In this document: positions 6,226 through 13,399 of the stretch, in pieces
Numbering within the stretch: the stretch's first letter is position 1
How the letters are laid out: each line of letters opens with the position of its first letter
Source of the DNA: Halothiobacillus sp.
Lineage (GTDB): Bacteria > Pseudomonadota > Gammaproteobacteria > JAAZVP01
Length of the DNA: 64,000 nt
Direction: 5' to 3'
NCBI GenBank assembly: GCA_018623495.1
Contig: JAAZVP010000001.1
Span: 55,991 to 119,990, forward strand
The notes under the pieces: model-generated
What the model was told of the DNA's origin: nothing
Seen by the model: the letters and a program-made list of their open reading frames with translations, nothing else
Database searches by the model: none
Made by a program: the position numbers and the translations under genes

Positions 6226-6639
6226 ATGACGATGCCCGAGATCAAGACGGTCCACAAAGGCGAGATGCTGTTCGAGAGCCGGATGGGCAACCATGCCCTG
6301 GCCATCGACGTGCCCGAGGGCATGGGTGGCAGGGACCGGGGTCCCCAGCCGCCCCAGCTCTTCATCGCCTCGCTGGGCTCCTGCGTGGCGGCGCTGGTGG
6401 CGGACTACTGCAACCACCACGACATTTCCGCCGAGGGGCTCGAGGTGACCGTGTCCTTCGACAAGGCCGAGCATCCCACCCACCTGACCAACATCCGGGC
6501 ATTGGTGATGCTGCCCCACGCGGACCTGGGCCAGGGACACCGCGAGACCGTCCTGCGCAGGGTGGCCGAGCACTGCCCGGTACACGAGACCCTCTGCGCC
6601 GGCGAGAGGATGGACTTCGACATCCGCGGGCGGGATTGA
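6226..6639 (+). CDS. osmC: OsmC/Ohr-family peroxiredoxin-like protein
   Basis: 137 aa. GGAGG ribosome-binding site. Conserved OsmC motifs (...ASLGSCVAALVADYCNHH ... HCPVHETL) with the two-cysteine pattern. Confidence 0.8.
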   Translation: MTMPEIKTVHKGEMLFESRMGNHALAIDVPEGMGGRDRGPQPPQLFIASLGSCVAALVADYCNHHDISAEGLEVTVSFDKAEHPTHLTNIRALVMLPHADLGQGHRETVLRRVAEHCPVHETLCAGERMDFDIRGRD

Positions 6640-6646
6640 CGCCGGG

Positions 6647-8068
6647 ATGGCGGTGGATCGGGGGCGGGTAAGGCGCATGCTGGACCCCGAGCGCCTGCGC
6701 ACCGGCGCCCGGCGCCTGGCCGACCGCCGGGTCCGCCTGGCGATCACCGGCCTGTCGCGCTCGGGCAAGTCGGTCTTCATCACCTCGCTGATCCAGCAGC
6801 TCACCCACGCCTCGGTGAGCACCAACCTGCCGTTTTTCCGGGTGGCCGCCGAGGGCCGCCTGCTGGGCGTCCAGCCCGGTGTGGCGCGTTCGCTGGACAT
6901 TCCCCGGTTTCCCTACGCCGAGGCGATCGCGCGGTTGTCGGCCGATCCGCCGGCGTGGCCGGAGCCGACCCGCGGCATCAGTGCCGTCGATCTCGCGCTG
7001 CATTTCCAGCCCCGGGGGTGGCTCGGGCGGATGACGTCCTCGGCGCGCCTGGACGTGGAGATCGTCGACTATCCCGGCGAGTGGTTGCTGGACCTGCCGT
7101 TGATGGACACGAGCTTTCGCGAGTGGTCGGAACAGGTGGGCCGGATGTGTGCGCGTCCCCCGCGGCGTGAACTGGCCGGTCCCTGGCTCGCGGCCCTCTC
7201 GGGGACCGACCTGGCCGGTCCGGCCGATGGCGCGGCCATCAAGGCGCTCGCCGGGCACTACACGGAATTTCTCCATGGCTGCCGGGAACCCGAGCATGGG
7301 CTCAGCCTGATCCAGCCGGGCCGGTTCGTGTTGCCCGGGGAGCTGGAGGGGGCACCACTGCTGGATTTCTGTCCCTGTCCCGGTGCGCCGGCCGATGAGG
7401 CCCTGCCACCCGACTGCCTCTTCCGGACCATGGAGCGCCACTTCGAGGCCTACAAGCGACACGTGGTCCGGCCTTTCTACGAGCGCTATTTCGCCCGCTT
7501 CGACCGCCAGATCGTGCTCGCGGACGTGCTTCGGCCGCTCAACCACGGGCCGGCCAGCTACGCCGACCTGCAGGAGGCCATCCAGACCGTCCTGGGGAGC
7601 TTTCGCTATGGTCGCGGGGGCTGGCTGTCGCGGGTCTTCCGGCCACGCATCGACCGCCTGCTGTTCGCGGCCACCAAGGCCGACCAGGTGACCCCCGACC
7701 AGTGGTCGCACCAGCGCGATTTCCTCCACCGCGTGGTCGCCCGCGCCGAGAACGAGATCCGCTGCCACGACGTGCAGACCGAGACGCTCTCGGTGGCCGC
7801 CCTGCGCTCCACCCGCAGCGGGCGGGTGGAGCGTGAGGGGCGCGAGATCCCCTGCCTGGTGGGTCTGGCCGAGCCGGACCGCCGGCCGGTACGGGTCTTT
7901 CCCGGCGAGATCCCCGGGCAGGTGCCCCCGGATTCAGAGTGGACGCCGGAGCGTTTCCACTTCATCCAGTTCGCCCCGCCCGAGATCCCCGACATCGAGG
8001 GCGAACCCCTGCCCCACGTGAGCATGGACCGGGCGCTGGAGTTCGTGCTGGGAGACAAGTTCGGATGA
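6647..8068 (+). CDS. ycjX: YcjX-like P-loop NTPase (DUF463 family)
   Basis: Collinear with E. coli YcjX. Walker A LAITGLSRSGKSVFITSL. Further matches: DPPAWPEPTRGIS, IVDYPGEWLLDLP, FDRQIVLADVL, LFAATKADQV, PLPHVSMDRALEFVLGDK. Alternative start at 6677. Confidence 0.85.
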   Translation: MAVDRGRVRRMLDPERLRTGARRLADRRVRLAITGLSRSGKSVFITSLIQQLTHASVSTNLPFFRVAAEGRLLGVQPGVARSLDIPRFPYAEAIARLSADPPAWPEPTRGISAVDLALHFQPRGWLGRMTSSARLDVEIVDYPGEWLLDLPLMDTSFREWSEQVGRMCARPPRRELAGPWLAALSGTDLAGPADGAAIKALAGHYTEFLHGCREPEHGLSLIQPGRFVLPGELEGAPLLDFCPCPGAPADEALPPDCLFRTMERHFEAYKRHVVRPFYERYFARFDRQIVLADVLRPLNHGPASYADLQEAIQTVLGSFRYGRGGWLSRVFRPRIDRLLFAATKADQVTPDQWSHQRDFLHRVVARAENEIRCHDVQTETLSVAALRSTRSGRVEREGREIPCLVGLAEPDRRPVRVFPGEIPGQVPPDSEWTPERFHFIQFAPPEIPDIEGEPLPHVSMDRALEFVLGDKFG

Positions 8069-12100: not shown

Positions 12101-12215
12101 GGCCGCGGGCACCCTGCTGCCCTTCGTGGTCAACGAGGCCGGCAAGCACGTCCGCTCCCGGCGCGGGGGGACGCTGCCGGCACTGGCGCAACCGGAAAAG
12201 GAGACCCAGGGATGA
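9153..12215 (+). CDS. P2-type (Ca2+/Na+/Mg2+-class, non-heavy-metal) cation-transporting P-type ATPase with an N-terminal degenerate HMA-like extension
   Basis: 1020 aa from the Met after a GGAAGG ribosome-binding site. The upstream part of the 1207-aa ORF overlaps ycjF in another frame and is rejected. Cation_ATPase_N motif [13 protein letters not shown]. TGES motif. TM4 PEGLP (not the CPC of heavy-metal pumps). Phosphorylation site DKTGTLT. Hinge [22 protein letters not shown]. The N-terminal ~100 aa carry the same PGRxRxxV...RLERxL...ANPxTGxxLV domain as the two downstream small proteins. Confidence 0.9.
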   Translation: [1020 protein letters not shown]

Positions 12216-13399
12216 CCTGCGACTTCGTCTTCACGTCCGATTCGGTGACCGAAGGCCACCCGGACAAGCTCTGCGACCAGATCTCCGATGCCATCATCGA
12301 CGCCTACCTGAGCCGTGATCGCGAGGCCGAGGTGATCGCCGAGTCGGCCGTGGCCAACGGGGTGGTCTTCATCTCCAACCGCTTCGTGTCCTCGGCCCGC
12401 GTGGACGTGGCGGAGGTGGCGCGCCGGGTGATCGCGGACGCCGGCTACGCCGATCGCGACGGCTTCAACGCCGAGGAATGCACCATCCTCACCAGCAGCC
12501 AGGACCTGGCCGCGGCCCGGGGGCCCCGGCCGGTCGCCCCGGCGCCGGAGGCGCTGGAGCGGATCGTCGCCGGCAACCAGGTCAACAGCTTCGGCTTTGC
12601 CTGTCGCCAGAGCGAGACCCTGATGCCCCTGCCGATCCACCTTGCCCACGGGTTGTGTCGGGGCATGGACGAGGCGCGGCGGGGCGGTGCGCTGGACTAC
12701 CTGCGCTCGGACGGCCAGGTCCAGGTGGGCATCGAGTACGCCGACGGTCGGCCCCGCCGTATCAGCGGCATCACCGTCCTGGCCAGCCATGCCGAGGGCC
12801 GTGCCGTCGGCAACGACCGCATGCGCGACGACCTCTTCGAGGCGGTGATCGAACCGGTGCTGGCGGACGCCGGTATCGCCTTCGACCGGCGCTCGTTCTT
12901 CCACCTCAATCCCTTCGGCCCCATCGCCGGCGGTGGCCCCGACCTCCATTCCGGCCTGACCGGGCGCAAGAACGGCATCGACAACTACGGCGAGTATTCC
13001 CGTCACGGCGGGGCCGCGCTGAGCGGCAAGGATCCGCTGCGCATCGACCGGGTGGGCAGCTACATGGCCCGCTATGCCGCCAAGAACGTGGTGGCCGCCG
13101 GCCTCGCGGAGCAGTGCGAGGTGCACCTGGGTTACGGCATCGGGCAGGCCGGACCGGTGAGCGTGCGCGTCCAGACCTTCGGGACCGGCGAGCTGGCGGA
13201 AGAGGCGATCAAGGGGCGCCTGACGGAGGCCTTCGACTTTCGTCTCGGCGCCATCATCCACGACCTGCGCCTGCGCGAGTGGCCCGCCCACCAGGCGGGG
13301 CGCGGCTTCCGCCAGCTGGCGACCTACGGCCACATGGGCCGCGAGGACCTGCGCCTGCCCTGGGAACGTACCGACCGGGTGGACGCCCTGCGCGGCTGA
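12212..13399 (+). CDS. Divergent S-adenosylmethionine synthetase (MetK-family) paralogue
   Basis: ATGA overlap with the ATPase stop. Collinear with MetK over its full length (FTSDSVTEGHPDKLCDQISDAIIDAYL...GLTGRK...GGAALSGKDPLRIDRVGSYMARYAAKNVVAAGLAEQCEV...TFGT). Canonical motifs are altered: GAGDQG to AGNQVN, GGGAFSGKD to GGAALSGKD, DTYGG to DNYGE. Confidence 0.8.
   Translation: MTCDFVFTSDSVTEGHPDKLCDQISDAIIDAYLSRDREAEVIAESAVANGVVFISNRFVSSARVDVAEVARRVIADAGYADRDGFNAEECTILTSSQDLAAARGPRPVAPAPEALERIVAGNQVNSFGFACRQSETLMPLPIHLAHGLCRGMDEARRGGALDYLRSDGQVQVGIEYADGRPRRISGITVLASHAEGRAVGNDRMRDDLFEAVIEPVLADAGIAFDRRSFFHLNPFGPIAGGGPDLHSGLTGRKNGIDNYGEYSRHGGAALSGKDPLRIDRVGSYMARYAAKNVVAAGLAEQCEVHLGYGIGQAGPVSVRVQTFGTGELAEEAIKGRLTEAFDFRLGAIIHDLRLREWPAHQAGRGFRQLATYGHMGREDLRLPWERTDRVDALRG

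Follow-up and report, generated by a model that had tools for sequence, protein, structure and literature searches.

A string of five plus-strand genes between positions 6226 and 13399 of a 64,000-nucleotide stretch of Halothiobacillus sp. DNA (contig JAAZVP010000001.1, positions 55,991 to 119,990; hereafter the window) encodes an OsmC-like protein, YcjX, YcjF, a P-type ATPase and a paralogue of the S-adenosylmethionine (SAM) synthetase MetK. Is this a single operon in which YcjX and YcjF act on, or with, a membrane pump, as the initial annotation of the locus suggested, or do genes of separate histories stand side by side? Here we compare the string with homologous loci from other genomes and with the families to which its proteins belong.

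The explanation that we favour, and that we regard as moderately probable when taken as a whole, is that the string is a composite of three collinear evolutionary units: osmC, the universal ycjX-ycjF pair and a cross-phylum module. At the core of that module we place a P2-type pump with a CoBaHMA domain and a translationally coupled, MetK-derived partner, which together would serve in Ca2+ handling.

A P2-type pump followed by a MetK-like gene in at least six phyla

We assembled 82 loci carrying the pump, 80 of them from a scan of one genome per GTDB species (45-60% identity) and two from exact look-ups. The MetK-like gene lies directly 3′ of the pump gene on the same strand in 73 of these 82 loci; the nine others comprise seven contig ends and the two cyanobacterial pump loci of the sample, which truly lack it. 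Where the flanks are complete, the MetK-like gene follows the pump in 41 of 43 loci, and a 4-nucleotide (nt) overlap of pump stop and MetK-like start is found in 49 of 74. The loci belong to at least six phyla. They span Gamma- and Betaproteobacteria and Nitrospirota as well as other groups, and their hosts include Chromatiaceae, Thiohalocapsa, Halochromatium, Thermithiobacillus, Nitrosospira/Nitrosovibrio, Nitrospiraceae, Candidatus Magnetominusculus, Syntrophales, Acidoferrales, Isosphaeraceae and Methylomirabilis. Even two very divergent MetK-like proteins (41-46% identity), picked from a search of cluster representatives, are encoded directly after a homologous pump. The MetK paralogue, which the initial annotation mentioned as an added oddity, is indeed odd; it is no side feature, being the pump's real conserved partner.

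This pairing is widely distributed, crosses phyla and is apparently undescribed. No paper linking MetK and P-type ATPases was found in the literature searched, a search that did not take in the CoBaHMA-defining paper (Gaschignard 2024), and a translationally coupled MetK-like protein is a kind of P-type ATPase partner that we did not find described there. No fusion of pump and MetK-like protein was found among the sequences examined. Long MetK matches that might have been taken for such fusions were rejected as intein-containing or otherwise extended canonical enzymes; in two of them (P0251 and P0351), a canonical MetK is interrupted by an intein with a LAGLIDADG homing endonuclease domain.

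The pump itself (9156-12215, plus strand, alternative start 9153) matches the Pfam E1-E2 ATPase, Cation_ATPase_N and Cation_ATPase_C families and is a P2-type cation pump of the SERCA/SPCA/LMCA1-like kind. It has TGES287, DKTGT447 and TGDGVND742, and PEGL404 within the PEGLP motif of transmembrane segment (TM) 4. Among proteins of solved structure it comes closest to SPCA1 (518 bits) and Listeria LMCA1 (443 bits), with SERCA also a close relative. The pump nevertheless scores below every NCBIfam equivalog cut-off, including those of the PMR1-type (TIGR01522, 630 versus 798 bits) and SERCA-type (TIGR01116, 493 versus 703 bits) models. Assignment to the P1B heavy-metal ATPases was considered and rejected: TM4 carries PEGLP and not CPC, the N-terminal domain has no CxxC, and the P1B scores are far below their cut-offs.

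Across 77 pump homologues, the residues equivalent to SERCA E309, N768, E771, N796 and D800 are invariant, that equivalent to T799 is conserved in 84% and that equivalent to E908, a TM8 glutamate, in 62%. The window pump retains six of these seven SERCA Ca2+-site residues and has Gln at the E908 position. On the strength of these residues the substrate is most likely a Ca2+-like divalent cation, which agrees with the presence of Na_Ca_ex genes in 23 pump loci and of a GDT1 gene in the Methylomirabilis locus (L002). Compared with human SPCA1 (8iwp), Listeria LMCA1 (6zhf) and SERCA1a, the pump shares the full P2 architecture, the TGES, DKTGT and TGDGVND motifs, PEGLP in TM4, N..E in TM5 and N..TD in TM6. 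It differs from them in the TM8 Glu, replaced by Gln in this copy, in the cytoplasmic MetK-like partner encoded next to it, and in an N-terminal CoBaHMA domain, some 120 residues long, that they lack. Three loci hold a second P-type ATPase gene, 37-41% identical, directly upstream of the CoBaHMA pump and on the same strand (L003 6432-9023, L035 5440-8043, L045 1642-4305).

CoBaHMA, also known as HMA_2, is an HMA-fold domain in which basic residues are conserved and metal-binding cysteines are missing. It first came to light in calcyanin, the marker of intracellular amorphous calcium carbonate (iACC) in cyanobacteria, and its presumed partners are anionic molecules such as lipids (PMC8890360; bioRxiv 10.64898/2025.12.07.689555). 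Its signature consists of a His before strand 1, the basic residues of GRxR and a TG turn (PMC8890360). The pump's domain, at approximately residues 17-75 (about 9204-9380), presents this signature as H20, GRAR and LTGR, and these positions are 88-96% conserved in the 77 homologues.

Unbiased clustering of all open reading frames (ORFs) in the pump loci revealed which other genes recur beside the pump. DUF5132 proteins were the most frequent (48 loci), followed by CoBaHMA proteins with a membrane-spanning part (CoBaHMA-TM, 42 loci), tandem USP (29), a 73-residue membrane peptide (28), EcsC (27), Zn_peptidase_2 (26), the Na_Ca_ex family already mentioned (23), PHA_gran_rgn (21) and single-domain CoBaHMA proteins (20). 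The CoBaHMA-TM gene lies directly downstream of the DUF5132 gene in 36 of the 40 loci that carry both.

The MetK-like protein and its remodelled pocket

MetK is among the most conserved enzymes known. The window's MetK-like protein (12212-13399, plus strand) contains all three S-AdoMet synthetase domains and is 39% identical to E. coli MetK; matches to solved bacterial MetKs at E = 1e-83 to 1e-91 make the three-domain fold evident at the sequence level. For an alignment with E. coli MetK we took 72 pump-adjacent MetK-like proteins, using the place of their genes rather than sequence similarity as the criterion. Nearly invariant in this clade, and common to it and the canonical enzymes (E. coli MetK and human MAT2A), are H14, D16, K17, E42, D163, R244, K245, K265 and D271, together with D249; these residues are the triphosphate, Mg2+ and K+ ligands. 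Such ligands are 97-100% conserved in the clade, with the exception of K165 (64%; Gln in the window protein).

This conservation, the three domains and a score above the TIGR01034 cut-off would be expected if the gene encoded a true second SAM synthetase. Co-expression with the pump could then provide SAM on the spot or during stress, for example because the enzyme depends on K+ and Mg2+, or could sustain a methyltransferase. However, the rest of the active site departs from the canonical enzyme. The three methionine ligands are replaced together: D238 by His in 73 of 73 sequences, E55 by His or Arg in 70 of 73, and Q98 by His or Leu. K269 is Arg in 73 of 73, F262 has become Leu and D118 is Asn, His or Gln, and GAGDQG reads xA(K/R)xQ(V/A). 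In the adenine pocket, T227 is changed to Glu or Asp, R229 to Pro and F230 to Leu or Val, with loss of the adenine-stacking Phe. The window protein has R55, L98, N118, H238 and I230, and so lacks both the canonical methionine ligands and the canonical adenine/ribose pocket.

In human MAT2A, Glu70 and Asp258 hold the backbone nitrogen of methionine and Gln113 holds its oxygen (PMC6850014); the E. coli counterparts are E55, D238 and Q98, respectively. The Gln113Ala change on its own leaves MAT2A with about 75% of its activity, which favours a SAM synthetase, whereas the MATα1 variant Asp258Gly has significantly lower SAMe levels with its phosphatase activity unaffected (PMC6850014).

Canonical MetKs from all phyla keep the signature residues almost without exception. 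An exhaustive search of 1.84 billion cluster representatives for MetK relatives returned the canonical signature HDEEQGDQGDKFD.RKFKKD in 80 representatives and the pump-linked signature in 17, including most of the best-scoring matches. With the signature columns left out, a neighbour-joining tree contains a single split that has 88 of the 89 clade members, and not one of the 81 canonical MetKs, on the same side. The pump-linked proteins therefore form a clade apart from canonical MetK, with members always placed after a P-type pump. The nearest canonical MetKs are those of Bacillota and Actinomycetota and not those of Proteobacteria, so the clade is old and not a recent duplicate.

Two further observations bear on SAM supply. 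No methyltransferase is among the recurrent neighbours of the pump, and plasmid-borne metK copies (at most 46% identical) sit in other contexts with no adjoining pump. In a Rhizobium plasmid (L169) and a Mesorhizobium plasmid (L170), the second metK accompanies either a SAM-dependent methyltransferase gene and an MFS transporter gene, or glyA and an adenosine kinase gene; such copies represent another kind of metK paralogy, one tied to the methyl cycle. Because all three methionine ligands, GAGDQG and the adenine-stacking Phe are replaced, the MetK-like protein probably does not make SAM, and we judge a second SAM synthetase to be quite unlikely here.

Existing annotation says otherwise. Both JGI and NCBI label clade members as methionine adenosyltransferase, a name that most receive automatically, given TIGR01034 scores of 262-375 bits in the clade against the model's cut-off of 309; the window protein scores 351, compared with 667 for E. 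coli MetK. Above the cut-off lie the proteins of the window and of L164, L001, L002 and P0245; P0260 lies below it. The clade is thus a probable case of systematic mis-annotation and a candidate for a new activity.

Loss of the substrate pocket could also mean that the protein is inert, a pseudoenzyme that contributes to the pump only structurally or as a regulator, much as the beta and FXYD subunits do in other P-type ATPases; strict coupling to the pump and the conserved stop/start overlap, which suggest matched production, would suit such a role. What makes this decidedly improbable is the pattern of conservation. About ten triphosphate and metal ligands are conserved at nearly 100% across phyla, which a pure scaffold would not need. 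Moreover, the altered pocket residues fall into two covarying sets: about 43 loci, Chromatiaceae among them, have H55/H98/(H,D,Q)118/H238, and about 25, the window included, have R55/L98/N118/H238. Coordinated covariation of a His triad and an Arg/Leu/Asn set is characteristic of a functional site for a ligand or metal, and therefore points to selection on a new site rather than decay. The His-type and Arg-type patterns are what would be expected if Arg replaced a bound metal.

Building on the observed gene content, conservation, coupling and residue patterns, we infer which ion is transported and in which direction, and what chemistry the MetK-like protein performs, as follows. The pump would run a normal E1-E2 cycle through Asp447 and carry Ca2+, or a divalent cation like it, from the cytoplasm either across the cytoplasmic membrane or into an internal compartment. 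Its basic CoBaHMA domain, together with the free CoBaHMA and DUF5132 membrane proteins, may have a regulatory or organising role where the membrane surface is anionic. The MetK-like protein, presumably made in step with the pump, would still bind and cleave a nucleotide-triphosphate or tripolyphosphate chain with Mg2+ and K+ and would no longer bind methionine; it may act on another ligand or be a nucleotide- or polyphosphate-dependent partner of the pump.

A more specific scenario is conceivable, if unlikely in full. The MetK-like protein could represent a new enzyme family that turns the triphosphate-cleaving machinery on a non-methionine ligand, through a His-triad site that is possibly metal-binding or through an Arg site. 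With the CoBaHMA pump and the DUF5132 and CoBaHMA proteins, it might build or control an intracellular Ca2+ store (carbonate or polyphosphate). Such a system would occur among sulfur oxidisers, nitrifiers, syntrophs and other bacteria and would be related to the iACC machinery of cyanobacteria without depending on calcyanin.

YcjXF, OsmC and the five-gene string

The five-gene string itself is real. The ORF list and the junction sequences place all five genes on the plus strand with gaps of 7, -4 (ATGA), 41 and -4 (ATGA) nt, and Pfam and NCBIfam models confirm the gene identities given in the initial annotation. The osmC-like gene occupies 6232-6639, with an alternative start at 6226 where AGGAGG abuts the ATG. 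Independent gene calls on an identical metagenome scaffold (L165) place its start at 6232 and that of the ATPase at 9156, and for the osmC-like gene 6232 is the more likely start. It is followed by ycjX (6647-8068) and ycjF (8065-9111), the start of ycjF overlapping the stop of ycjX in the sequence ATGA. A spacer (9112-9155; 41 nt to the ATG at 9153 and 44 nt to that at 9156), in which GGAAGG precedes the start, separates ycjF from the pump, and a second ATGA joins the pump stop to the start of the MetK-like gene.

A sequence scan of 5800-14200 found no sigma-70-like and no intrinsic-terminator-like site. No sigma-32-like or relaxed sigma-70-like site appeared upstream of osmC or inside the 3′ end of ycjF, a scan that is uninformative at the 70% G+C of the region. 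RNA structure at the ycjF-pump junction is not significant (folding z-score -0.68). Co-transcription of the five genes is therefore plausible, judging from the common strand, the short gaps and the lack of terminator-like or promoter-like sites and of significant RNA structure. The 250 nt upstream of 67 pump genes revealed no general motif by 8-mer enrichment. An Rfam search of window positions 4000-17000 and six related loci found only tRNAs, plus an unrelated c-di-GMP-I riboswitch in the Methylomirabilis locus (L002 5414-5497, minus strand), upstream of an unannotated gene.

All three upstream proteins belong to recognisable families. The OsmC-like protein (135 residues) matches PF02566 with 52 bits against a cut-off of 27.5, and all NCBIfam subfamily scores are below their cut-offs; its cysteines are at positions 51, 60, 115 and 122, with a C-terminal CPV motif at Cys115. 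YcjX, a P-loop NTPase (DUF463), matches PF04317 over its full length (profile positions 1-443 of 443, 530 bits) and has the Walker A sequence GLSRSGKS at residue 35. YcjF, a membrane protein (DUF697), scores 132 bits with PF05128 and 229 bits with TIGR01620 (cut-off 160), and its hydrophobic segments span residues 61-124 and 212-235.

Is this pair tied to the pump? When the window proteins were searched against the 82 pump loci by tblastn, YcjX, YcjF and OsmC were found within 10 kb of the pump in none of them. A reverse survey of ycjXF neighbourhoods covered 80 ycjX loci from metagenomes: the ycjX-ycjF pair is intact in 67, and the pump, MetK and OsmC occur in none. The proposed functional link between YcjXF and a P-type ATPase is thus poorly supported.

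One related arrangement was found, on the 11.5-kb contig (L164) that holds the closest YcjX (58% identity) in a collection of 5.8 billion proteins. Its gene order is ycjX, ycjF, pump and MetK, followed on the opposite strand by CoBaHMA-TM, DUF5132, CoBaHMA and DUF2934 genes, and its proteins are about 58-60% identical to those of the window. A divergent tmcA stands there in place of osmC, and the spacer between ycjF and the pump is 246 nt compared with 41 or 44 nt in the window. Set against L164, the 80 ycjX loci and the 82 pump loci, this genome is the only one in which OsmC adjoins ycjX or the pump. Adjacency of ycjXF to the pump is therefore not confined to a single strain, since it recurs in the diverged L164; it is restricted to one lineage, in two genomes among about 165 loci, which is what inherited synteny alone would give. 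Homology of YcjF (DUF697) to EcsC or to an unannotated 198-residue family, which would have explained the adjacency, was rejected at hhalign probabilities of 0.8-5.6%.

A single five-gene stress operon, with the YcjX NTPase and YcjF acting on or with the pump under oxidative or osmotic stress, is very unlikely: the common strand, the gaps of 7, -4, 41 and -4 nt without a terminator-like site, the order from ycjX to the CoBaHMA and DUF5132 genes kept in L164 and the association of ycjXF with envelope stress and heat stress that the literature draws from its psp adjacency and its sigma-32 promoter (PMC3041696) all speak for it, but they are outweighed by the empty counts in both surveys, the lack of OsmC and the long spacer before the pump in L164, a YcjF with no homology to the recurrent membrane proteins of the module, and a two-genome distribution within one lineage. 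Support for the YcjXF-pump interpretation is no more than marginal. Read-through in this genome may place ycjXF on one transcript with the pump module, but the pair does not belong to that module. The locus is not good evidence for a link between YcjXF and a transporter, and the result for YcjXF is mostly negative.

In published contexts, ycjXF is found with tyrR, with the psp operon and under a sigma-32 promoter (PMC3041696). As in the E. coli ycjX-ycjF-tyrR arrangement and psp-linked ycjXF, the genes in the window form an adjacent, overlapping pair with full-length family matches. They differ in that no tyrR or psp gene adjoins them among the annotated neighbours and that the pump module lies downstream, a layout common only to L164.

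Several points weigh against the composite, Ca2+-handling explanation that we favour. The window's MetK-like protein exceeds the NCBI metK equivalog cut-off (351 versus 309 bits) and keeps most catalytic residues, which would allow a residual or modified adenosyl transfer, and the residues around Q98, in the gating loop, can be aligned with less confidence than the rest. The CoBaHMA match of the pump reaches 27.7 bits, below the Pfam cut-off of 30, though the signature residues are present. The nature of the ion is deduced from site residues that are partly common to other P2 pumps, and at the position of SERCA Glu908 the window pump has Gln. Finally, the recurrence of ycjXF-pump adjacency in so diverged a contig as L164 leaves room for some lineage-specific functional tie.

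Neighbouring genes and the cyanobacterial ccyA region

While the five genes stand as first described, the cluster does not end with them: genes of the pump module continue on the minus strand from 13475 to 14624. Convergent with the MetK-like gene is a gene for a CoBaHMA protein of 159 residues with a C-terminal hydrophobic helical hairpin (13475-13954), which matches the whole PF19991 profile with 59 bits (cut-off 30). Its start is overlapped by the stop of a gene for a small DUF5132 membrane protein of 108 residues (13944-14270, minus strand, PF17195), which has one TM segment (hydrophobic residues 12-36) followed by a long acidic helix. A single-domain CoBaHMA protein of 101 residues (14319-14624, minus strand) carries the signature FPGRLHLRV; its gene is among the L165 gene calls, and the L164 counterpart bears the annotation HMA_2. 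Beyond these lie a plus-strand gene for an EcsC-family protein of 272 residues (14851-15669, PF12787, E = 4.7e-26), also called on L165, and a minus-strand gene for a DUF2934 small protein (15666-15938, PF11154), which likewise comes after the CoBaHMA genes in L164.

The high G+C content (about 70%) of the region gives rise to many spurious long ORFs. Two were rejected as genes on this ground: a 306-residue minus-strand ORF (14319-15239) that runs over the 101-residue CoBaHMA gene and the opposite-strand EcsC gene, and a long plus-strand ORF (14167-15669) within which the real gene is EcsC at 14851-15669.

Other features of the surroundings are recorded here for completeness. An LMWPc phosphatase gene lies at 16058-16660 of the window, and in the Methylomirabilis locus ArsR, LMWPc and ACR3-type arsenic-resistance genes (L002 19571-22121) lie a few kb from the module. 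Between 17000 and 18500 the AT skew of the window falls to -0.55 to -0.60 over the part of a minus-strand RNase E gene outside the catalytic domains. On the other side of the string, two minus-strand methyl-accepting chemotaxis genes with dCache_3 and 4HB/TarH sensors (303-2243 and 4401-6044) flank mlaA, a SprT-like gene and a tRNA. The latter, a tRNA-Leu with anticodon TAA (4258-4342, plus strand), sits between a small minus-strand ORF and the second chemoreceptor gene, which is divergent from osmC across an intergenic region of about 187 nt.

The module's small proteins have a known counterpart in cyanobacteria. In Microcystis, the calcyanin gene ccyA is flanked by cax, a CoBaHMA gene, DUF5132 genes and a CoBaHMA-DUF454 gene; of these, cax, the CoBaHMA-DUF454 gene and one of the DUF5132 genes share its expression pattern (bioRxiv 10.1101/2024.07.07.602159). 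None of the twelve annotated recurrent neighbour families of the pump loci, in which no calcyanin-specific search was made, resembles calcyanin, a protein with a triple glycine-zipper domain. CoBaHMA and DUF5132 proteins, which have until now come up only in connection with the calcium-carbonate inclusions of cyanobacteria, are tied by the pump loci to a far broader range of bacteria, and the functions of these domains thus become testable in cultured Nitrosospira, Thermithiobacillus, Thiohalocapsa and Halochromatium.

The ccyA region of Microcystis aeruginosa PCC 7806 (bioRxiv 10.1101/2024.07.07.602159; PMC8890360) and the module described here place the same set of small proteins beside a Ca2+ transporter, in our case a probable one. 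The set comprises DUF5132 proteins, in which a long helix accompanies a TM hairpin, and two sorts of CoBaHMA protein, one ending in a helical membrane hairpin and the other consisting of the single domain. The two regions differ in the transporter, which in the cyanobacterium is a CAX exchanger and here is a P-type ATPase with a CoBaHMA domain of its own, and in the MetK-like gene, which is strictly coupled to the pump here. The regions differ also in their hosts, which here are mostly sulfur oxidisers, nitrifiers and syntrophs rather than cyanobacteria.

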